This document shows positions 3,178 to 39,208 of a stretch of 64,000 nucleotides of DNA, piece after piece; positions within the stretch are counted from its first letter, which is position 1; each line of letters starts with the position of its first letter. The notes beneath the pieces are model-generated. The model was not told where the DNA came from, ran no database searches, and worked only from the letters and a program-made list of their open reading frames with translations. Source of the stretch: a bacterium (GTDB lineage: Bacteria > UBA8248 > JACPRG01 > G963555815); contig OZ244653.1 of NCBI GenBank assembly GCA_965218795.1, positions 320,001-384,000 of the forward strand, read 5' to 3'. The position numbers were made by a program, and so were the translations under genes.

Positions 3178-3980
3178 TCCGCGCAACCGTTGCAGGCGCG
3201 GCAGGACGGATGGGCGGATGCAATATCCGTGCAATTTGCGAGGCGGATGACTTTGAGCTCGCGGGGGCTTTTGAAGCGCGCGATCATCCCTCCGTTGGAG
3301 AAGATGCAGGTACGGTTGCAGGTGTCGGCCCGTTGGGCGTTCCCGTCCTGGAGAGTATCGAAGAGGCCATCGCAGACGGTGACGTCGTCCTGGATTTCAC
3401 AGCACCGGATGCCTCCCTCGAGAATGCAAGCCAGGCCGCTTCCTTGGGCAAGGCGGCCGTGATCGGCACAACGGGGTTTGAGCCGGACCAAAAGCAAGCC
3501 ATAACGGAATTGGGAGACCGGCTGCGCGCCGTGGTGGCCCCCAACATGAGCGTCGGGGTGAACGTGACCATTGAGTTGGTCAAGGTCGCCGCACGGCTTC
3601 TCGGTGAGGAGTTCGATGTCGAATTGGTGGAGGCCCACCACCATTTCAAGAAGGACGCGCCCAGCGGGACGGCCCTGGCGCTCGCGGAGGCGGCGGCATC
3701 CGCACTGGGACGGGATCTGGCCGAGGTCGGCGTGTACGGTAGACACGGCCAGGTCGGAGAGAGAACCCAGCCGGAAATCGGCGTGATGACTCTCCGGGCG
3801 GGCGACCTCGTCGGCGAGCATACCGTGCTGTTCGGAGGCATCGGAGAGCGCGTTGAGATCGTCCATCGAGCCCACAGCCGTGACAACTTTGCGCGAGGCG
3901 CCCTGCGAGCGGCCCGATGGGTTTTGAATAAACCCGCCTGTATTTATTCCATGGCGGATGTCCTCGGCCTGACGACCTGA
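3174..3980 (+). CDS. dapB: 4-hydroxy-tetrahydrodipicolinate reductase
   Basis: GAAGRMG, GTTG, APNMSVGVN and EAHHHFKKDAPSGTA; TTG start overlaps the ctpA stop. Confidence 0.96.
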   Translation: MIRATVAGAAGRMGGCNIRAICEADDFELAGAFEARDHPSVGEDAGTVAGVGPLGVPVLESIEEAIADGDVVLDFTAPDASLENASQAASLGKAAVIGTTGFEPDQKQAITELGDRLRAVVAPNMSVGVNVTIELVKVAARLLGEEFDVELVEAHHHFKKDAPSGTALALAEAAASALGRDLAEVGVYGRHGQVGERTQPEIGVMTLRAGDLVGEHTVLFGGIGERVEIVHRAHSRDNFARGALRAARWVLNKPACIYSMADVLGLTT

Positions 3981-18712: not shown

Positions 18713-20055
18713 TCATGCGAGCCGGGAAATGACCTCGCTGAATTTTCTGCGGATGTTTCTGTAATGCGGGTCGCGTTGCGGATAACCCATCCGGATGAGG
18801 AAGAGAGGCTCGTGGTCGCTTGGTGGGATCGAGAGGATGGACCGCAACTGCGCCTTGGGTCCCTCCTGGACAATGGTTGAGGTTTGAAACTGAAGGCTGG
18901 CACCTACGGCCGTGGCCGTGAGCCAGAGCGACTGGATGGCCGCGCCGACTCCCGTCAGGATCCCCCTCCGATAATGCTCATCGGACTCGATCCGCCCGTC
19001 CGCGTTGTTCAGGACAGCGGTCAGAATGCGCCGGTGGTTTCAGGAGGGATCTCCGCTCTTCGGATGAGAAAGCGGTGGACCCCCAGCGACATGGCCAGCG
19101 GCGCAAGGGGGGTCTTGATGCCGAGTCGGGCGATGGACTTCTTGATCCCGGTCAGACCGAAGTGTTCGATGAACTCTCCGTCGCCGCGTCTTTCCCATTC
19201 CTTTCTCGTGAAACGCATCCACGCACAGGTTTCCGTGAACCGTCCCCGGTCTCCGGTCGCCTGGACCCAGGCCCGCTCCTGAAGCCGCGTCAAAGCCATG
19301 GTTCGGTCTTCATCTTCGGCCAGGACGAGTTGAGCGGCATCGGCGCCGTGAGCGTTGAGGGCCCTTTGCGCAGCCCGAAGGAGATGGAGAGAGTCACTCG
19401 GCCAGGGGTCATGCCGAAGAAAGGGAACCCTGTCGGACTGTCGAGATCGAAGGCATTCCAGGGCATCAGGAGCCGAAGATGGACGGGGTGGTGAGTCGTC
19501 CCTTCTCACCTCATTTTCGTGGGAGTCCAGGCGGTACACCAGTAAGGGGAGTGGGGGGGCGGGCGAGGGCTCTCCGTGGGTCCCGAGCTCAAACAGGGTA
19601 TACGGCTCCAAATGATCGGCGAACGAGAAACTCTTCGGTCGCCAGGCTTTCTCGCTTTCCCCCGAAGGTCCCCAGACGATGCTGTTCACCCCGAGCGCGG
19701 CCGAAACCAGCTGAACGTTCAGGCAGAGCGTCCCCAAGCCGATGTAGGATTCGGTCCCGAGGGGGTTTGCGACCGGCAGCATCCGGCTCCGATCCAGATG
19801 ACAAAGGATCCAGGTCCGGTGAGCCCCGGCCTCGGGGTGAGCCGAGAACGCTTCCGCCGTTTCCTGGATGGCGTCCGGCCCGGTCAGGACCTGGAGGGCC
19901 CACGGCTGCATGTTATAAGCGGAAGCCCCCCATCGGGCTGCTTCCAGGATTTGATTCAGTTGGTCCTCGGAAAGGGGCCTTCCTTCGGAAGCCGCGGATC
20001 GGGCGGTGTTCCTTGGACGGGTCAGTCCCTTCTCAAGCGCCTCGAAAACGTTCAT
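18713..20055 (-). pseudogene. Frameshifted two-domain nitroreductase (Acg-like); could be a sequencing error
   Basis: ORF 19021-20055 (AARWGASAYNMQPW) stops at TGA; the -1 frame continues ILTAVL...GAAIQSLWLTATAVG...LIRMGYP to TGA at 18713; the 1343-bp span is one base short of a whole number of codons. Confidence 0.8.
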
Positions 20056-20214
20056 AGCGGCTATTCTACCAGAGGAATATCGTGCGGGGGTTCGCTTCCG
20101 AGCATGATGTGGGACTGGAAAGGCCGGGAAGTGCGGCGGAAACCGGCTGTGCTATCATCCATGTGGCCTCGCCCGCGCCGGATTCTTGGGGCGACGAAAT
20201 GGATGGAGGCGTGA

Positions 20215-20901
20215 ATGGGAAAGGCAACGATCATTTCCAACGTGATGGATGCGGTGAAGGACATTCGGGACGGTTCTGCCGTCATGCTGGGCGGTTTCGG
20301 GGGGGCGGGCGCGCCGGACCGTCTGATCGACGCTTTGTGCGAGACGAGCGTCAGGGACCTTGTCGTCATCTCAAACCATTGCGGCAAGGGCGACCGGGGT
20401 CTCGCGCGCCTTCTCGCTGAAGGGCACGTGAGGAAGATGGTTTCGACTTACGCTTTTCACCGCGATGCCTACGTATTCCGGGATCTCTATGAGAGGGGTG
20501 AGGTGACGCTTGAGATGATGCCACAGGGGACGCTGGCCGAGCGAATCCGGGCCGCCGGAGCGGGCATCCCCGCGTTCTATACTCCGACGGGCGCAGGGAC
20601 CGTCCTGACCGAGGATCGAGAGGTCAGAAAATTCGACGACCGGGAATGCCTCCTGGAGACGGCCCTTCACGCCGATTTCGCCCTCATCCATGCCCGGAAG
20701 GCCGACCGGCTCGGAAATCTCGTCTACAGGAAGACCGCCAGGAACTTCAACCCCATCATGGCGGCCGTCGCCGGCGTTACGATTGCGGAGGCCGAGGAGC
20801 TCGTTGAGGTTGGGGAGTTGGACCCCGAAGCCGTTATTACGCCGTTTCTGTATGTCGACCGTCTGGTCGACGTGGGAAGGAGCGATGAAAGGCTTAACTG
20901 A
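20215..20901 (+). CDS. 3-oxoacid CoA-transferase subunit A (PcaI/AtoD-like)
   Basis: [35 protein letters not shown]. Confidence 0.93.
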   Translation: MGKATIISNVMDAVKDIRDGSAVMLGGFGGAGAPDRLIDALCETSVRDLVVISNHCGKGDRGLARLLAEGHVRKMVSTYAFHRDAYVFRDLYERGEVTLEMMPQGTLAERIRAAGAGIPAFYTPTGAGTVLTEDREVRKFDDRECLLETALHADFALIHARKADRLGNLVYRKTARNFNPIMAAVAGVTIAEAEELVEVGELDPEAVITPFLYVDRLVDVGRSDERLN

Positions 20902-21544
20902 AGAACAGATGGCCCGGCGGATGGCCCGCGCCATCCCGGATGGCGCGATTGTCAACCTGGGAATCGGGATGGCGACCTTGGTGGGCGATTTCCTGTCCTC
21001 CGAGCGGGACGTGTACGTGCAGGTCGAGAACGGCGCTCTGGGTATCGGCCTACGGGCGGAGCCGGGGGAGGTCGCCCTCGATTTGCTCAATCCTTCGAGG
21101 GAACACGTGACCCTTCTGTCCGGGGGCTCTTTCTTTCATCATGCCGACGCTTTCGCAATGATTCGGGGCGGTCATATCGACGTGAGTGTGATGGGGGCTC
21201 TCCAGGTGAGCGAAAAGGGCGACTTGGCGAACTGGGCCGTTCCCGGAAAGGCGACTGGAGGCATCGGCGGAGCCATGGACCTCGCGGCCGGGGCGAAGCG
21301 GGTTTACATTCTCATGACCCACACCAAAAAGGACGGTGGGCCGAAAATCCTGACGGAGTGCACCTACCCGCTGACGGCTCCGGGCGTTGTGGACCTGATC
21401 ATAACGGACTTGGCCGTCATCGAAGTGGCTCCGGAGGGCCTCGTCCTTCTGGAGCGGACGCCGGGAACCTCCGTGGAGGAGATACAAGCGAGAACGGGGG
21501 CTTCTCTCATCATCGGGGAGGAAGTGGGAACAATCGAAGCATAG
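20885..21544 (+). CDS. 3-oxoacid CoA-transferase subunit B (PcaJ/AtoA-like)
   Basis: VNLGIGM, VENG, IRGGHID, GGAMDLA. Confidence 0.93.
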   Translation: MKGLTEEQMARRMARAIPDGAIVNLGIGMATLVGDFLSSERDVYVQVENGALGIGLRAEPGEVALDLLNPSREHVTLLSGGSFFHHADAFAMIRGGHIDVSVMGALQVSEKGDLANWAVPGKATGGIGGAMDLAAGAKRVYILMTHTKKDGGPKILTECTYPLTAPGVVDLIITDLAVIEVAPEGLVLLERTPGTSVEEIQARTGASLIIGEEVGTIEA

Positions 21545-21598
21545 TCTGTATAGATAGGGTATTCACCTGACAGTTGCCGTTCCTGGTCGGGATCAGTG

Positions 21599-21784
21599 CA
21601 GGCGGGGGAGTCCGGAATCACTCCTCCGGTGCCGGACGGTTCGGCTCGTGGGCCTTCTCGAGGAATGCGGCCCAGGTCACACCCTGATCCATCCGGTACG
21701 TAGTCCGGCAGTACAGGGGTCCGTAAAATCGCCCGATGGGCGAGAAATCCGCCGAGACGCGATCGCCGTCCATCAGCTCATCGG
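21599..21784. repeat. Direct repeat copy 1 (186 bp): duplicated 3' end of the flavin reductase gene
   Basis: Aligns without gaps to 23063-23248 (offset 1464); 5 mismatches by eye. Confidence 0.95.
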
Positions 21785-21812
21785 TAATGCACTGCGCTAG
21801 TGTGAACAGGCC

Positions 21813-22928
21813 CTAGTCCGATACTTTTTTCTGGGCCGCCGCGAATCGCTCTCGATCTCGTTGCGCCAGGCAGACCTTGCAGGTAGGGTTCAGATTGCCA
21901 CTCAGAATTTCCTGCCGGATCTGCTGCATCCCGTCGCCGTTCCAGACATCGGTCAGAGTCGTGTCCTTAATATTACCGACCACCAGACTCTTACCAAAAA
22001 ACGTGCAGCAAGGGGTTATATCGCCGTTTGCCCAAACATGCAGGCTGTTGAAGGGATAGGCGCAGTAGGTTTCATCGATATCCTCGTTGCGGATATTCTC
22101 GATCTCCTTGATAGTCCCGGTGGCCCGCAACTCGTCCACGTAGCTGAAATCGATCATCTCTTGAAGGTCCACGTAGTCGACAAGATCGCGCCATGTTTCG
22201 ACAAATTCGTCGGCTTCATCGATATTGAGTTCCTGTACGCAAAAACAGAGTCTTATGATCGGCAAATCGGAATTCTTGCGGCGTTTCGCCTCGATCAGGC
22301 GACGCACGTTTGAAGTTACGCGCTCGAACTCGTCCTTACCCCTGATTTTTTGATAGGTTTCACGTGTCGTTGCGTCGATCGATATTTCGACACGGGCAAT
22401 CTTGTTGTCGACGACGAAATCGCAGATTTCATCGTTTAGAAGCACGCCGTTTGTGCCCAGGAATACGTCCATCACTCCGGCGCTGCGAATTCGACTCAGC
22501 ACGTCCTGAATCTGTTTGTAAAGCAACACTTCGGAACCCAATCCAACGACCATAGCCGGAAGATTATGCGCTTTGCATTCCTCAAGCACCCGGTCGATGT
22601 CAGCGACACCGAGCATGAATTTCTTTTCTTTGTGATTGATCGTGTAACACATGATGCAGTCGAGATTGCACCGATTGACAAGTTCCAGTGATACGGTCAA
22701 CGGGAACTCAGGCCACTCGCCGCTCTTGTCGTAGTTGAGGCTCGCACGATAGGACTGACGATAGGCCTCGAATGCTGATCCGAAATTACGAATGAGTAGC
22801 TCTTCTACATCGGTAAATTTCTTAGAGGAAATATGGTTCACGTCCATCCGCTGTTGTTTGTCTGTCTGCGTCGCACTGGATTTCGGTAGTGCTTCGGCCG
22901 TATCATGCGCCGTGTCGTAACTCGGCAT
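21813..22928 (-). CDS. Radical SAM/SPASM(twitch) domain protein
   Basis: CNLDCIMC motif; C-terminal CAYPF...GDITPCC...CKVC; start uncertain (22952, 22928 or 22847). Confidence 0.9.
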   Translation of the reverse strand: MPSYDTAHDTAEALPKSSATQTDKQQRMDVNHISSKKFTDVEELLIRNFGSAFEAYRQSYRASLNYDKSGEWPEFPLTVSLELVNRCNLDCIMCYTINHKEKKFMLGVADIDRVLEECKAHNLPAMVVGLGSEVLLYKQIQDVLSRIRSAGVMDVFLGTNGVLLNDEICDFVVDNKIARVEISIDATTRETYQKIRGKDEFERVTSNVRRLIEAKRRKNSDLPIIRLCFCVQELNIDEADEFVETWRDLVDYVDLQEMIDFSYVDELRATGTIKEIENIRNEDIDETYCAYPFNSLHVWANGDITPCCTFFGKSLVVGNIKDTTLTDVWNGDGMQQIRQEILSGNLNPTCKVCLAQRDRERFAAAQKKVSD

Positions 22929-23018
22929 GTTTCTCAGTGAGCCTCCAGGCATTCGGGGAGTTTGAACTGCCCTCAGTGTAGAGAGCCGTCAAAAATTCAC
23001 CGATACATTCATATCTCA

Positions 23019-23047
23019 AACGTAGCCATCCATTGCACGATTGTCAA
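23019..23047 (-). promoter_or_regulatory. Sigma70-like promoter for the radical SAM gene
   Basis: Minus strand TTGACA-N17-TACGTT. Confidence 0.6.
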
Positions 23048-23062
23048 TAGGTCCGCCTCGAT

Positions 23063-23248
23063 CAGGCGGGGAAATCCGGAATCACTCCTCCGGTGCCGGA
23101 CGGTTCGGCTCGTGGACCTTCTCGAGGAATGCGGCCCAGGTCACACCCTGATCCATCCGGTCCGTGGTCCGGCAGTACAGGGGTCCGTAAAATCGCCCGA
23201 TGGGCGAGAAATCCGCCGAGACGCGATCGCCGTCCATCAGCTCATCGG
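23063..23248. repeat. Direct repeat copy 2 (within the intact flavin reductase 3' end)
   Basis: Matches 21599-21784. Confidence 0.95.
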
Positions 23249-23732
23249 CGACGTGGAAGCGGACGACCTCCCCGAACAGCACCGCCCATCCCGGGTCTGT
23301 ATCTCCGAAGAAGACCGACTCTTTCAGCCTGCACTCCATTTGGACCGGTGACTCGGCGATGCGAGGAGGGGCCACCTCGAGGCTGGGGATTCGCGTTAGC
23401 CCCGCTTCCTCGATTTCCGAAACCGCAGGTCCGTAATCCTGCGCCGAGACCAGGACGGATTCAAGCAGTTCTTCGGTCACGACGTTGACGACAAATTCCC
23501 TTGTCTCCAGGATGTTCCGGCGGGTGTCTTTTTCCTTGCCTTCCCTGGGGCCGGTGGAGACGGAGATGATCGGAGGAGAGGAGCAGTGCGCCATGAAGAA
23601 GCTGAACGGGGCCAGGTTGGCTACACCCTCGGCGCTGAGGCTGGCGACCCATGCAATGGGCCGGGGGACCACGCAAGCCTGAAGCAACCGGTAGACCTGC
23701 CTCGCGTCCGCCTTTTTGGGGTCCAGGTCCAT
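23082..23732 (-). CDS. Flavin reductase-like FMN-binding protein (DIM6/NTAB family)
   Basis: VVPRPIAWV, NLAPFSFF, KDTRRNI, PPRIAESPVQMEC. Confidence 0.9.
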   Translation of the reverse strand: MDLDPKKADARQVYRLLQACVVPRPIAWVASLSAEGVANLAPFSFFMAHCSSPPIISVSTGPREGKEKDTRRNILETREFVVNVVTEELLESVLVSAQDYGPAVSEIEEAGLTRIPSLEVAPPRIAESPVQMECRLKESVFFGDTDPGWAVLFGEVVRFHVADELMDGDRVSADFSPIGRFYGPLYCRTTDRMDQGVTWAAFLEKVHEPNRPAPEE

Positions 23733-23831
23733 GGATTTGAAGAGCTTCGTTGGGATGGGGCCGAATCAACGTACGAAGCGGGCCTTGCGTTCGCCGGATT
23801 CCATCGAAGTTGTCCCCGGCGTCGCCGTCCA

Positions 23832-24329
23832 TCAGCTTTCGACTGGCCTGAGCTCGAGGGGCATCACACCGTCCAGGCGCGTTCTTCCGCACATGTGGGC
23901 CAGTTCGTACAGGTTTTCCGTGACCTGTCCAAAAACAGTCAGCCTGTGGGGACCCGAGGGCATGCGGAATCCGCACACCCCGTAGATCAGGGCGATTTCC
24001 TGTTCCTCCACGTCGTATGTAAGGTGACCCGGCGCGCCGTAGGTCATGATGTTTTCCAGGTGGTCTACCGGGAGACGGACCTTCTCGACGTACCGGATCA
24101 TGTCGCCCGACCAGGCCGCATGGATGGCGTGACCCTGCACGGGGAGGCTCCGCCAGAAGGCATCGCAGGTGGCCGGCGCCCCTTTCTCGATCAGCAGGCC
24201 CCTCGCTGTAATGCCGTTAAGGTCGATCTCGAAGCGCCGGGCGTCCGGTTCCGGGATGAGATGGCGCGCCCATTTTTGGTTCCAGGCCTCATCCCAGTCC
24301 CGCTGGAGTCTCTCCTTGTCCAGATTCAT
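23832..24329 (-). CDS. DUF3830-like (cyclophilin-like fold) protein
   Basis: APATCDAFWRSLP...HAAWSG...LEN...PG...EIALIYG pattern. Confidence 0.7.
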   Translation of the reverse strand: MNLDKERLQRDWDEAWNQKWARHLIPEPDARRFEIDLNGITARGLLIEKGAPATCDAFWRSLPVQGHAIHAAWSGDMIRYVEKVRLPVDHLENIMTYGAPGHLTYDVEEQEIALIYGVCGFRMPSGPHRLTVFGQVTENLYELAHMCGRTRLDGVMPLELRPVES

Positions 24330-24440
24330 GCGTGGGTCGCCCTCATTCCAGGAAGGGGTATCCGGTTCTCCGAGCAGGATGGCCCGGTCCGGCGAACGAT
24401 GTGTTTCGAAAATCCGTCCTTTGGAAGCAGCCCTCGTATT

Positions 24441-24827
24441 TTATCCGTTTCGGCCGTCCCTTGCGATGGGACGTTTTCGTATGGCTTGGCCCATGCCAAC
24501 GGGCGGAGAGAAAATCCCCAGAAAGCAGACGGTCGTTGCGCCCGGATTGGTGTGTTGGTGCACGGTTCCCGGAGGGATGAACAACAGACTGCCCGGCGTG
24601 AGCCGAAATTCCTCGCCCGCTGGCGTGACGATCATCTGCTCTCCTTCCAGTACGTAGATGATCTCCTCTTCGTGCCGGAAATGAACGTCGCTTTTTGCGC
24701 CGGGTGGGAGCTCGGCATGACAGACCATGACGTTGGAAGTCCCGGTGACTTCATCCGCCAGGACCTTGGTCAACCGGCCTCCGGGGGCTTCATAAGCCGG
24801 TTCATCACGTATGTTCACGAGCCGCAT
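24441..24827 (-). CDS. Cupin domain protein
   Basis: HFRHEEEIIYVLEG and FIPPGTVHQHTN cupin motifs. Confidence 0.88.
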   Translation of the reverse strand: MRLVNIRDEPAYEAPGGRLTKVLADEVTGTSNVMVCHAELPPGAKSDVHFRHEEEIIYVLEGEQMIVTPAGEEFRLTPGSLLFIPPGTVHQHTNPGATTVCFLGIFSPPVGMGQAIRKRPIARDGRNG

Positions 24828-24902
24828 GCGGGAACTTTCCCTTTTTGAATGGTCTGGAAGCGTTCTGCCTGGTGCGGGAAGGGAAATTCAAAATGTTGCG
24901 AT

Positions 24903-25049
24903 TCATAGGTTGCGAGAGGTGCCGTCACCGGGGTTGAATTTGTACCCAAGCGGTACGCAATGCGGACTGCCGTTATTGTTCGTCGTCGAAACACGCGCCA
25001 TCATCGGTTGAGCAGGAACTCGCCCAGGTCTGTCGGGCGTGAAGGCCAT
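24903..25049 (-). pseudogene. Remnant of a pyridoxamine 5'-phosphate oxidase-like (PPOX class) gene
   Basis: MARVSTTNNNGSPHCVPLGY resembles the PPOX N-terminal motif; DLGEFL lies in an adjacent frame; premature stop. Confidence 0.55.
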
Positions 25050-25177
25050 TTCAGGTTCTTCTCCCTCGGTGATCCATTGAATCATGACTCCATGATACGC
25101 GATGATGAACTTGAAGACAAAGGGCGCGAAAGCGCTCTTGATTTCCACGAGTCAGCGAGTTGCCGATGAATATGAAT

Positions 25178-25450
25178 TCAGGCCCACTCCGGGGGATCGG
25201 GGGGAAGTCCGAAGCGCACCTCCTGAAAATTTCCGATATAGGCGATGGCGGTGGGTATGAGAAAGAAAGGAGAGATCCACCAGGCGAAAGGCAGAGGAAT
25301 AAAGGCGGCGACCAGGAAGATCAATCCCTCCCCGAGGCTTTTGTGCCGAAGCTGGTGCAATCCGGGAATGAGATACAGATGCCACCTTCTTGATTGTTTT
25401 GCAGAGACGTCCTTCGGCCCGGCTTCCGGCTCCCGCTGATTCAGGCTCAA
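25178..25450 (-). CDS. Small hypothetical membrane protein
   Basis: TTGA overlap with the udg stop; IPGLHQ followed by a hydrophobic hairpin. Confidence 0.55.
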   Translation of the reverse strand: MSLNQREPEAGPKDVSAKQSRRWHLYLIPGLHQLRHKSLGEGLIFLVAAFIPLPFAWWISPFFLIPTAIAYIGNFQEVRFGLPPDPPEWA

Positions 25451-26268
25451 GACGGATTCTTGTCCGCCGAGGGGAGCGGCGGAAGCCCCAGGGCCTGATG
25501 GACCTTCTGAAGGTCTTCCCACACCGCCCGTTTCTGGGATGGATTGCGGAGCAGGTAGGCGGGATGGAAAGTGGGCATGACGGGAATCCCCTGGTACTCC
25601 CGGAAGTGGCCCCGCAGGCTGGAGATCCGATCATCCGTGGCCAGCAGGGTTTGGGCGGCGAACTTCCCCATGGCCAGGATCATCTTCGGTCGAAGTGACA
25701 GGAGCTGCCGGATGAGGAACGGCTCGCAGGATTCGACTTCATCCGGAAGGGGATTTCGATTTTCGGGCGGTCTGCACTTGATGACATTGCAGATGTACAC
25801 TTCCTCGCGCGACAGACCGATCGCCTCCAGCATCCGGGTCAGGAGTTGACCGGCGCGGCCCACGAAGGGCTCACCCTGATGATCCTCATCGCGGCCCGGG
25901 GCCTCTCCGACGATGACCAGATCGGCATCGGGATTCCCGACGCCGAATACGATGCTTTTTCGTTTCTCGCAAAGACGGCATCGGGTGCAGTCACCCAAGT
26001 CCGTGCGGATGTCCTCCATGGATTCATCGGACGCGGCTATGCCGACCCTGCCTTCCGGCTTGGGCTTCCCGGAGACGGATGGGATTTTCGCTGATCGGGG
26101 GCGTTCGCCTCGAGGCGACGGAGGGCGCCCGGACGGAATGGCTTGGTTCGTTTCGAGGAGAGCCGAATCGACATCGAACTCTCTGGTTCCGGAAGCGGCT
26201 TCGGCCTCCACGTACGATTGAAGATCCCGAACGGCCTCGGCCAGAAGCTCTCTCGGCGACTGGGTCAA
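25447..26268 (-). CDS. udg: Uracil-DNA glycosylase, family 4 (Fe-S)
   Basis: CTRCRLC, VGEAPG, PFVGRAG, KCRPPENR, TFHPAYLLR. Confidence 0.93.
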   Translation of the reverse strand: MTQSPRELLAEAVRDLQSYVEAEAASGTREFDVDSALLETNQAIPSGRPPSPRGERPRSAKIPSVSGKPKPEGRVGIAASDESMEDIRTDLGDCTRCRLCEKRKSIVFGVGNPDADLVIVGEAPGRDEDHQGEPFVGRAGQLLTRMLEAIGLSREEVYICNVIKCRPPENRNPLPDEVESCEPFLIRQLLSLRPKMILAMGKFAAQTLLATDDRISSLRGHFREYQGIPVMPTFHPAYLLRNPSQKRAVWEDLQKVHQALGLPPLPSADKNPS

Positions 26269-37486: not shown

Positions 37487-39208
37487 TCAGGCGGATTCAG
37501 ACGAGGTGGAGAGGCCCTTGATCGTCATTTCCAACTCTTCGTAGATCTCCCTCATCTCGTCCTTGATTGTAGCCGGCAGGTGACTCAGACGCTCCCTGGC
37601 GTCGGCGAGGACTTGGGCCGCATGCGCCAACCCTTCCTGCCGTTCCTGCTGATACGCCTCGCGCACTCGCTGGATGGCCGTTCGGACAAAACCGCTGAAT
37701 TCGGCCGCGGCCAGCCTTTCCTGCGTCAGCTCGTAGAAATGCAGGCCGACGATCCCCTGCCGGACGCCGTCGACGAACCGGGAGGGATACTTGCAGAGTA
37801 TGCGGAAGAGAAACTTTCCATACGACCAGCCGTATTTCGAGGTTGGAATCATCAGGAGGGACCTCAGGAAGGCCCAGAACCTGCGGAAGGTGAAGGGCGC
37901 GTTGGCGATGAGGTTGCCTTCCAGGTTCTCGTACATGGTTTCGACCCTGCGGAAGTAGTTCTCCGGCTTCCCGTAGATTTCATGCAGGACGTTCTTGTAC
38001 GCTTTCACCAGGGCGTCCGGATCCTGGATCGTCCGGAAATTGAATGCGAATTCAAAGGTGTTGTTGCCTTCGCGTGTGGCGTCGGTCTCCAGGAGGCGAT
38101 CTTCATCTTTGAGCCGGTCGTACAGGGGGCTGCTCGGTATGGCCGTCAGCAGGCCGGCCATGGCGACGGGAACCCCCGAGTCCTGAATGAAGTCAATCAG
38201 GTGACGGTCGATATCGAGGGGGTCGTTGTCGAACCCGATGATGAAGCCGGCCATGACTTCCATTCCGGCCTTCTGGATCTTATGGACGGATTCCAGGAGA
38301 TCGTATTTGACGTTCTGAAGCTTCTTGGTTTCCTTCAGGCTGTCGTCGATGGGCGTCTCAATGCCCAGGAATACGCTGTCGAACCCGGCCTCATTCATGA
38401 GTTCCATCAGTTCCTCGTCCCCCGCCAGATTGACGCTGGCCTGGGTGTAGAACTGAAAGGCCATGTCGTGCTTTTTCTGCCACTCGATCACGTGAGGCAG
38501 GATCTGCCGGCAGGATTTCTTGTTCCCGATGAAGTTGTCATCCACCCAGAACACACTGCCGCGCCAATTCCGCGCGTAGATGAGATCAAGCTCCTCCAGC
38601 GTGCGCTCGATCGATTTGTAGCGGGTCGTCTTGCCGAAAAGGGTCGGAATGTCGCAGAACTCACACTTGAAGGGGCACCCGCGCGACATTTGCAGGGCCA
38701 TTGATACATAGTTCTTCATGTTCAGGATGTCGTAGCGGGGGAGCGGGGCCTCGCTGATACCCGGCGAATCGTCTCGAAGATCCAACACGATGCGCTCGTC
38801 CGCCTTGAGAATTTCGTTCAGGCCATTGAGAAAAGTCGGGCTTTCCGCCTCACCCAGAACCAGATGGGCCTCGGGGGGAAGCTCCTGGCTGGAGGACGTG
38901 GCGTCCGGTCCGCCGATGACGACGGGCACGCCGGCCTTCCCGCACCGGCGGACGATCTCCTGGACATAGGGGCGTTGGATCATCATCCCGCCGGTCAGGA
39001 CGATATCCGCCCAGCCGAGGTCGCGGTCGGACAGATTCTGAACGTTCTGATCGACCAGCCGAACCTCGTAATCCTCGGGCAGCATCCCCGCCACGGTCAA
39101 AAGACCCAGGGGGGGGTGCGTCGCGCGGATTCCCAGAAATCGGAGCGCCCTCTGATAGCCCCAGAAAGTCTCCGGGAAGTTCGGGTAGATCATCAAGACT
39201 CGCGGCAT
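37487..39208 (-). CDS. B12-binding radical SAM protein (DUF4070-type C-terminus)
   Basis: PPLGLLTVA B12-binding domain, SRGCPFKCEFC, VDDNFIGN, GFIIGFDND. Confidence 0.9.
   Translation of the reverse strand: MPRVLMIYPNFPETFWGYQRALRFLGIRATHPPLGLLTVAGMLPEDYEVRLVDQNVQNLSDRDLGWADIVLTGGMMIQRPYVQEIVRRCGKAGVPVVIGGPDATSSSQELPPEAHLVLGEAESPTFLNGLNEILKADERIVLDLRDDSPGISEAPLPRYDILNMKNYVSMALQMSRGCPFKCEFCDIPTLFGKTTRYKSIERTLEELDLIYARNWRGSVFWVDDNFIGNKKSCRQILPHVIEWQKKHDMAFQFYTQASVNLAGDEELMELMNEAGFDSVFLGIETPIDDSLKETKKLQNVKYDLLESVHKIQKAGMEVMAGFIIGFDNDPLDIDRHLIDFIQDSGVPVAMAGLLTAIPSSPLYDRLKDEDRLLETDATREGNNTFEFAFNFRTIQDPDALVKAYKNVLHEIYGKPENYFRRVETMYENLEGNLIANAPFTFRRFWAFLRSLLMIPTSKYGWSYGKFLFRILCKYPSRFVDGVRQGIVGLHFYELTQERLAAAEFSGFVRTAIQRVREAYQQERQEGLAHAAQVLADARERLSHLPATIKDEMREIYEELEMTIKGLSTSSESA

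Follow-up and report, generated by a model that had tools for sequence, protein, structure and literature searches.

A radical SAM/SPASM gene between two copies of a flavin-reductase gene end: a probable scar of horizontal gene capture by homology-assisted illegitimate recombination with an insertion sequence

Introduction

Integrative elements insert at the 3' ends of genes and leave behind a restored gene and a direct repeat. A locus of this appearance lies in the stretch analysed here, 64,000 nt of the bacterial contig OZ244653.1 (assembly GCA_965218795.1, positions 320,001 to 384,000; hereafter the window), where a radical S-adenosylmethionine (SAM)/SPASM gene sits between two copies of the 3' end of a flavin-reductase gene. 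According to our analysis, the locus is probably the fixed chromosomal scar of a horizontal gene capture by homology-assisted illegitimate recombination involving an insertion sequence (IS), with no mobile element at work.

Several described systems resemble the locus in part. Genomic islands in the 3' ends of tRNA or protein genes share with it the duplicated 3' end, the intact gene and a cargo of foreign composition, but our locus lacks both an integrase and a short exact att core, an IS stump forms one of its borders, and the cargo is a single gene. In IS-mediated mobilisation, as by composite transposons and IS26-type translocatable units, an IS beside the cargo gene is likewise joined in the rearrangement, whereas here 27 nt of one IS end are present, the joint lies inside the IS, and the 64 kb hold no second end.

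Homology-facilitated illegitimate recombination (HFIR), described in naturally transformable bacteria and in Escherichia coli conjugation, combines, as our locus does, homology on one side with a short-microhomology joint on the other, brings in about 1 kb of foreign DNA and involves no dedicated recombinase (PMC3240628). According to that source, microhomologies of 3 to 10 bp are usual at the joints, deletions are a normal accompaniment, and the reported products usually delete recipient DNA, whereas at our locus nothing was lost, 186 nt were duplicated, and the event is natural and fixed. In the same source, 56 of 60 clones had part of the homologous locus duplicated; in 14 sequenced clones, duplications of 109 to 950 bp flanked the insert and were explained by a single crossover of circular molecules. 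This Campbell-type class ("SCO") resembles our locus in that the insert lies between direct duplications, and its size range brackets our 186 nt; it differs in that no plasmid or replicon is present here, and a circle would need a microhomology deletion in the donor chromosome.

The process is a known one, of which the locus provides a new example; its IS-stump junction is a new observation. When a single gene has passed between distant bacteria, how it entered can in most cases no longer be read from the sequence; here the far-side junction can be read to the base, and a capture route known mainly from laboratory crosses would be represented by a natural example, fixed in several populations.

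Repeat pair and insert

A repeat search followed by base-by-base comparison gave a pair of direct repeats, copy A at 21599 to 21784 and copy B at 23063 to 23248 (both read on the minus strand), of 186 nt each, offset by 1464 nt and 97% identical, with five mismatches at repeat positions 10, 12, 54, 100, and 104. Likeness between the flanks ends immediately beyond both repeat borders. Each copy comprises the final 54.7 codons of the flavin-reductase gene (164 coding nt), its stop and the 19 nt that follow. Copy B is the 3' end used by the intact gene, the insertion target (23732 to 23082, minus strand; 216 amino acids; PF01613 at 3.5e-22); copy A, which comes without a gene body, is a displaced, non-functional 3' fragment. 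In the coding part the copies differ by D191Y, V206A, and one silent site, and in the non-coding part by two sites. Orthologues of the flavin reductase, 68 to 75% identical, were found in four genomes of the same family, and all four have D, as copy B does, at the position where copy A has Y, a change that fits what would be expected of a relic.

Between the two copies there is one open reading frame (ORF), an intact and horizontally acquired radical SAM/SPASM gene (22952 to 21813, minus strand; 379 codons from the first ATG; PF04055 at 1.2e-17 and PF13186 at 1.1e-13), preceded by a foreign upstream region of 110 nt (22953 to 23062, minus strand; GC content 0.47) which matches nothing else in the genome. 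Most homologues of the protein begin at the equivalent of M37. The CxxxCxxC motif at C95/C99/C102 and the SPASM cysteines C297, C315, C316, C358, and C361 are invariant in 23 sequences; the length and the domain order are those of the homologues, and all conserved blocks are kept, the C-terminal tails of the homologues being variable. In 200-nt steps, the GC content is 0.47 to 0.55 in the interior of the insert versus 0.59 to 0.66 outside it. The radical SAM gene has a GC content of 0.508 and of 0.62 at third codon positions, compared with 0.63 and 0.78 for the flavin reductase and with 0.605 for the whole genome.

An earlier note on this stretch, made from its letters alone, had described the 186-nt repeats with their offset of 1464 and five mismatches, the roughly 55 final codons and downstream bases of the flavin reductase in each of them, the single radical SAM/SPASM gene in between and the higher AT content of the insert, all of which our comparison bears out; the D/Y, V/A, and single silent change that it listed are right for the coding part of the repeat.

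The insertion-sequence stump and junction J1

The border of the insert next to copy A is formed by the end of a resident IS. In a genome search, window positions 21776 to 21826 recurred at nine other places, each of them the right end of an element about 815 nt long. The element is bounded by terminal inverted repeats, has TA on its flanks at most sites, and contains two ORFs that overlap around an A-run. Full copies of this element encode DUF4096 and DDE_Tnp_1 and match the NCBIfam IS5-family model NF033580, above the cut-off for the second ORF. The features of the IS5 family, namely, a DDE transposase, inverted repeats and a short target flank, are found in the full copies elsewhere; the window has the last 27 nt alone, including the right inverted repeat (21787 to 21813, plus strand), and the rest of the approximately 815 nt is gone. 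The 27-nt tail is followed by the dinucleotide TA (21814 to 21815, unstranded), which flanks the IS end as at most other copies, and the tail, the TA and the next base (21787 to 21816) agree at 30 of 30 positions with the terminus and adjoining flank of the copy near genome position 1389700. The present TAG stop of the radical SAM gene is made up of the last C of the IS and the flanking TA, which places the insertion of the IS at the very end of that gene.

Copy A and the stump meet at an illegitimate junction, J1, which a three-way comparison of window, flavin reductase and IS places in a 14-nt patch at 21776 to 21789 (unstranded). Within the patch, the flavin-reductase and IS sequences agree at 12 of 14 positions, the first 8 of them consecutive; up to 21784 the window has the flavin-reductase sequence, and from 21787 that of the IS. 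At a fixed register, 12 or more matches in 14 would arise by chance with a probability of 3e-6, and the IS version of the patch is common to all 11 IS right ends in the genome. The transposase did not make this junction, because the joint sits 27 nt inside the IS and not at its terminus. On sequence grounds, J1 is deemed the scar of a microhomology-guided illegitimate recombination, and no att core or recombinase core.

A second IS end was not found in the 64-kb window, where a 16-nt pattern of the IS end, allowing up to three mismatches, matched the known stump only; a composite-transposon structure was rejected on this ground. A likeness to the left IS end near 23048 to 23057, 7 of 10 positions by eye, was not significant and was discarded.

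The genome holds at least 11 intact right ends of the IS, and the left half was matched at 14 places, the query copy included. Besides the copy near 1389700, copies lie near genome positions 3074800, 3110700, 3329800, 4578900, and 5046900. Copies with internal deletions lie near 3074219 to 3074830, 3871845 to 3872503, and 998610 to 999105, and the last of these, by reading, has short sequence identity at the deletion ends; microhomology deletion inside the IS may be common in this genome.

Empty site and foreign origin

The genome G001, of the same genus, presents the empty site. Its genes run gmk, coaBC, uracil-DNA glycosylase and, further on, cupin, DUF3830, flavin reductase and, after about 80 nt, CoA-transferase B and A, and there is no radical SAM match. 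In the window, the flanks are core genes syntenic with G001 right up to the repeats. The host flank beyond copy A is the gene for the CoA-transferase B subunit (20885 to 21544, plus strand; PF01144 at 1.5e-39), convergent with the flavin reductase; the stop of the CoA-transferase gene is separated from copy A by a host intergenic spacer (21545 to 21598, unstranded). The spacing of the CoA-transferase gene has been kept, at 73 nt here versus about 80 nt in G001, so that nothing was lost and 186 nt were duplicated. Three other members of the family with a flavin-reductase orthologue have different genes downstream of it.

Except for its first 30 to 40 nt, the 1278-nt interior of the insert occurs only once in the genome. 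Among 40 relatives of the host, no close relative of the radical SAM protein was found (best match, 28% identity), and in 50 other genomes of the host's phylum none exceeded 29% identity. The best non-self matches, in a collection of 5.8 billion proteins, are 55 to 59% identical. The 35 homologous loci retrieved from species genomes comprise 28 from Alphaproteobacteria (mostly Rhodospirillales), 5 from Patescibacteria, 1 from Planctomycetota, and 1 outlier at 26% identity. In a tree of 33 rows, from which L058 (partial), L068, and L069 were omitted, the window protein has a long branch (0.79) and falls, without resolved placement, in a clade with 81/81 support, whose 28 other rows are 27 from Alphaproteobacteria and 1 from Planctomycetota. 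To judge from these comparisons, the radical SAM gene comes from outside the host lineage, from a distant bacterial group, and the tree names no donor. For the host itself, a CoaBC search gave a single taxon label among at least 120 matches, a "Candidatus Tectomicrobia" metagenome-assembled genome at 52% identity, which is too weak a match to place the lineage.

Scans of metagenomes with a 23-nt word from the repeat gave zero matches. A 23-nt word from the radical SAM gene gave one match (L070), which was rejected as a chance identity of 24 nt, the rest of that sequence being unlike.

The insertion in independent sequencing runs

Logan contigs of four runs from four studies (X1, X5, X7, and X12) were aligned to window positions 20800 to 24100; as one of these runs possibly represents the source sample, we count three independent studies. 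All four runs have a contig over 20800 to 21640, which bridges from the spacer into copy A and includes the two private bases of copy A, as well as a contig which takes in the IS stump, the radical SAM gene, its upstream region and 42 nt of copy B (to 23104). In run X5, copy B is continuous with the body of the flavin-reductase gene (23075 to 24100, in a contig of 3620 nt), and the word that spans J1 is present in contigs of three of the four runs (X1, X7, and X12). With the junctions present in four runs, a mis-assembly, for which the earlier note had asked that the junctions be checked, does not explain the locus. No joint of an empty site, no joint skipping the insert and no back-joined (circle) joint occurs in the contigs of the four runs, which cannot show rare forms, and no contig joins the spacer, a repeat and the gene body.

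The insert varies between runs by 0 to 7 letters in about 1.3 kb, and the differences between strains over it are 0.1 to 0.5%. The radical SAM gene reads without indels across the four runs, and its changes between strains are two silent ones and one replacement, G320S. At position 23072, which lies in copy B, three of the four runs have the base of copy A. Run X1 has one 174-nt repeat contig (window 21611 to 21784 / 23131 to 23241), at about twice the flanking depth and with Y at the position of D191, and its copy B-type depth falls to 3.5; this suggests that in the X1 population the two copies have been made identical, in which case the flavin reductase in use would carry the allele that elsewhere marks the relic. 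In some strains, judging from the contigs, the repeat copies appear still to exchange sequence by gene conversion.

All four runs show the filled site despite the 186-nt direct repeats, and this persistence is compatible with, but no proof of, selection for the gene. The insertion is real, foreign, not recent, and common to several strains or populations.

Proposed capture and alternative explanations

In the history that we consider probable, the incoming DNA would have consisted of an IS end, the radical SAM gene, its upstream region and a homologous flavin-reductase 3' end. Homologous recombination would have tied its flavin-reductase side to the chromosome, and an illegitimate joining guided by microhomology its IS side. 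This could have happened along either of two routes. Along the first, (a), a linear fragment would have come from a related strain in which the gene was already in place behind the flavin reductase, and would have entered by HFIR: the donor DNA pairs on the side of the gene body, and its IS patch is joined illegitimately to the flavin-reductase patch of the recipient. Because the recipient patch lies 186 nt before the end of the homology, the donor's 186 nt would be added and not exchanged. Along the second, (b), the two patches of the donor, which are direct repeats 1464 nt apart, would recombine to release a 1464-bp circle, which would enter the empty site via a single Campbell-type crossover.

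Both routes, as we infer them, would give exactly the observed product with host recombination functions only. Either makes the two copies donor and recipient alleles, which would explain their 2.7% difference, later blurred by gene conversion. The joint at J1, with its 8 consecutive and 12 of 14 matches, is the illegitimate joint at a few bases of microhomology that HFIR leaves, and the duplication of a segment of homology around the insert, at 186 nt, falls within the 109 to 950 bp reported for single crossovers in PMC3240628. The IS would have aided the transfer as recombining DNA and not through its transposase.

Several observations weigh against this history. The joint at J1 is not clean, the window having TA at 21785 to 21786 where both parents have CG. 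For the other junction (23062|23063), no partner sequence is known, and only a 3-nt CAG overlap, or GATCAG with a 5-nt indel, is arguable. At J1 itself the contigs reach only 27 to 30 nt into the copy A side (from 21758 in X7 and X12 and from 21755 in X1), which is below our bridge threshold of 31 nt, although the first words of these contigs are nonetheless specific to J1. Classical HFIR usually, though not obligatorily, deletes recipient DNA (PMC3240628), and no deletion is seen here. Lastly, neither the donor arrangement (flavin reductase, radical SAM gene and full IS) nor a nearly identical strain with an empty site was found in the genomes of the host phylum, the four runs or the metagenome scans, and the two-step history is therefore one that we infer.

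The main rival is a one-step template switch in the host, of the fork-stalling or microhomology-mediated break-induced replication (MMBIR) type, in which replication would have jumped at the 12/14 patch to a foreign molecule carrying the IS end and the radical SAM gene, copied 1.28 kb and returned 186 nt behind its point of departure. The microhomology at J1 and the possible short overlap at the other junction suit such an event, as do the residence of the IS family, which makes an IS-tagged template in the same cell plausible, and the internal deletions of other IS copies, one of them with short identities at its ends. The two repeat copies would, however, have begun identical, and their 5 differences in 186 nt (2.7%) exceed the 0.1 to 0.5% seen between strains, though copy A was free to decay; the source template, moreover, was not found in the genome. 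We regard this explanation as unlikely, if less so than the others. Somewhat less probable again is a still-active integrase-free cassette, in line with the earlier note's suggestion of an island able to excise or amplify as a circle, in which RecA-type recombination between the repeats would regularly free a 1464-bp circle that re-integrates or spreads by homology. Such a circle is topologically possible, the copies exchange sequence in some strains, and experiments have shown single-crossover integration of circles with short homology (PMC3240628), but the contigs of the four runs, which drop rare forms, hold neither a skipping nor a back-joining joint, the genome contains the unit once, the site is filled in all four runs, and nothing on the circle would provide for replication or transfer. 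A related idea, to which we give slightly less credence still, is a homology-borne minicircle: host recombination would free the 1464-bp circle, addressed by its flavin-reductase end, and after lysis and uptake it would re-insert in related strains by a single crossover. If this were true, single-gene vehicles would have a general source in microhomology deletions beside an IS, with no need of a recombinase, and the locus would be both the birth scar and the integrated state of one.

Very improbable, and close to refuted, is the idea that the locus is what remains of a site-specific integrative element with its att site in the flavin-reductase 3' end. A gene-restoring direct repeat of a 3' end is the classic outcome of such elements, and the earlier note had accordingly offered a non-tRNA att site and the remnant of a larger element as explanations. 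The comparison supports neither. No integrase, recombinase or transposase was found among the 26 ORFs at approximately 7 to 39 kb of the window (about 13 kb on either side of the locus), no tRNA gene between 10000 and 35000, and no Rfam match between 21000 and 24000 at E values up to 1; nor is there a second IS end within about 13 kb. The borders do not derive from one core either, as the copy A border is an IS-stump fusion in the 12/14 microhomology patch and the repeat is 186 nt at 97% identity and not a short exact core. An att-type element or the remainder of a larger one is thus unsupported, given the missing recombinase and tRNA, the syntenic flanks and the IS-stump fusion. The same note's picture of an integrase-free, one-gene foreign island flanked by the duplicated 3' end of its target gene is supported, and the comparisons it had proposed fell out on that side as well: the flavin reductase of G001 faces the CoA-transferase directly, and the relatives of the radical SAM protein do not track the host phylogeny, the nearest being alphaproteobacterial and the best in the phylum reaching 29%. 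Nor does the locus have the makings of an integron cassette, since there is no integrase and no inverted repeat at the borders (four inverted pairs were found in 19000 to 26000, and no dedicated attC model was run). Least credible of all is an assembly artefact that joined two strain variants through the shared 186 nt. Repeats with few mismatches can mislead assemblers, but the genome is one contig of 5,174,045 bases, the spacer/copy A and upstream-region/copy B junctions are found in four runs of four studies, run X5 joins copy B to the gene body, three of the four runs have the J1 word, and contigs that would connect spacer, repeat and gene body are missing.

For genome scans, capture by homology-assisted illegitimate recombination carries the lesson that an integrase element should not be presumed wherever a foreign gene lies between duplicated gene ends.

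Transcription and possible role of the radical SAM gene

The radical SAM gene had been called self-promoted because of a TTGACA-N17-TACGTT motif upstream of it. The motif is present on the minus strand (23047 to 23019, as read from the sequence), with a perfect -35 hexamer (23047 to 23042) and a weak -10-like hexamer (23024 to 23019), but as the latter matches at only 3 of 6 positions, a scan for consensus promoters does not call it, and promoter-like sites are not enriched in the region (1 found versus 1.1 expected from shuffles). The label self-promoted is therefore unsupported. No intrinsic terminator was called between the flavin-reductase and radical SAM genes, so read-through from the flavin reductase is equally possible. 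Transcripts of the gene probably arise through read-through out of the flavin reductase, from the imported upstream region, or in both ways.

A 6-bp stem with a 5-nt loop at 23053 to 23069 spans the junction of the upstream region and copy B, with one arm on each side and no T-run after it; it could be due to chance, or it could be the flavin-reductase terminator of the donor arrangement. Two metatranscriptomes labelled "sponge metagenome" were considered as a source on expression and habitat and set aside, since they contained only 6 to 7% of the words and are evidence for neither.

The protein falls into no named functional subfamily: 64 NCBIfam models match it, and the 25 best-scoring are all below their curated cut-offs (best score, 103 bits versus a cut-off of 170). 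We inspected the neighbourhoods of its homologues, predicting 83 ORFs at 10 homologous loci, of which 45, from nine loci, were scanned. Maf-type flagellin glycosyltransferases (PF20157 and PF01973) occur at four of the nine loci, flagellin at three and AMP-binding enzymes at three, and genes for nucleotide sugars or nonulosonic acids (DegT, PseB-like, CMP-transferase, and GFO/IDH) occur at the two loci farthest from the query (L059 and L061). The nearest subfamily adjoins Maf glycosyltransferase and flagellin genes in Rhodospirillales metagenome-assembled genomes and lies inside a nonulosonic-acid operon in Patescibacteria (L035-L063). The window protein resembles this radical SAM/SPASM subfamily of Rhodospirillales flagellin-glycosylation clusters and of some patescibacterial nonulosonic-acid clusters in motif, cysteines, length and domain order; it differs in that its gene is solitary and its host has no flagellin gene.

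The host genome has three strong NeuB-type synthase genes with CMP-transferases nearby, and the radical SAM gene stands alone, far from these clusters. By analogy with its relatives, modification of a sugar of the nonulosonic-acid type may be a reasonable guess at the role of the enzyme, and no more than that. It counts against such a role that the neighbourhoods come from 9 of the 35 loci and that a flagellin gene is missing from the host. Among the publications listed, there was no characterised member of this subfamily and none that links such an enzyme to flagellin glycosylation, to Maf or to the nonulosonic, pseudaminic, or legionaminic acid pathways. As a by-product, the analysis brings to light an uncharacterised radical SAM/SPASM subfamily in the flagellin-glycosylation islands of Rhodospirillales.

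Direct repeats elsewhere in the genome and neighbouring features

Comparison of the genome with itself gave 121 direct-repeat pairs of 60 to 800 nt within 12 kb, and among nine such pairs checked by composition, the present locus is the only one with a low-GC interior. A scar of similar appearance near genome position 714000 (L071, in G000:C1:712000-717500) was rejected as a second case, having a different history. There, two copies of a 162-nt segment from inside a class IV aminotransferase gene, 98% identical (locus positions 1995 to 2156 and 3388 to 3549, 1393 nt from start to start), lie between two tandem short-chain dehydrogenase paralogues, and the interior has a host-like GC content; it looks like a decayed tandem duplication with no foreign insertion. 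Direct repeats of 100% identity occur near 2529785 to 2531403 (584 nt, with a spacing of 1035 nt) and near 1157600 to 1161786 (423 nt, with a spacing of 3764 nt).

Within the window, the interval between the cupin and uracil-DNA glycosylase genes is about 0.6 kb here and about 3.5 kb in G001; its positions 24830 to 25450 have a GC content of about 0.53 and two ORFs without a Pfam match. A second radical SAM gene, unrelated to the first (B12-binding, radical SAM, and DUF4070 domains), lies 15 kb away at 37487 to 39208 and has a host-like composition.

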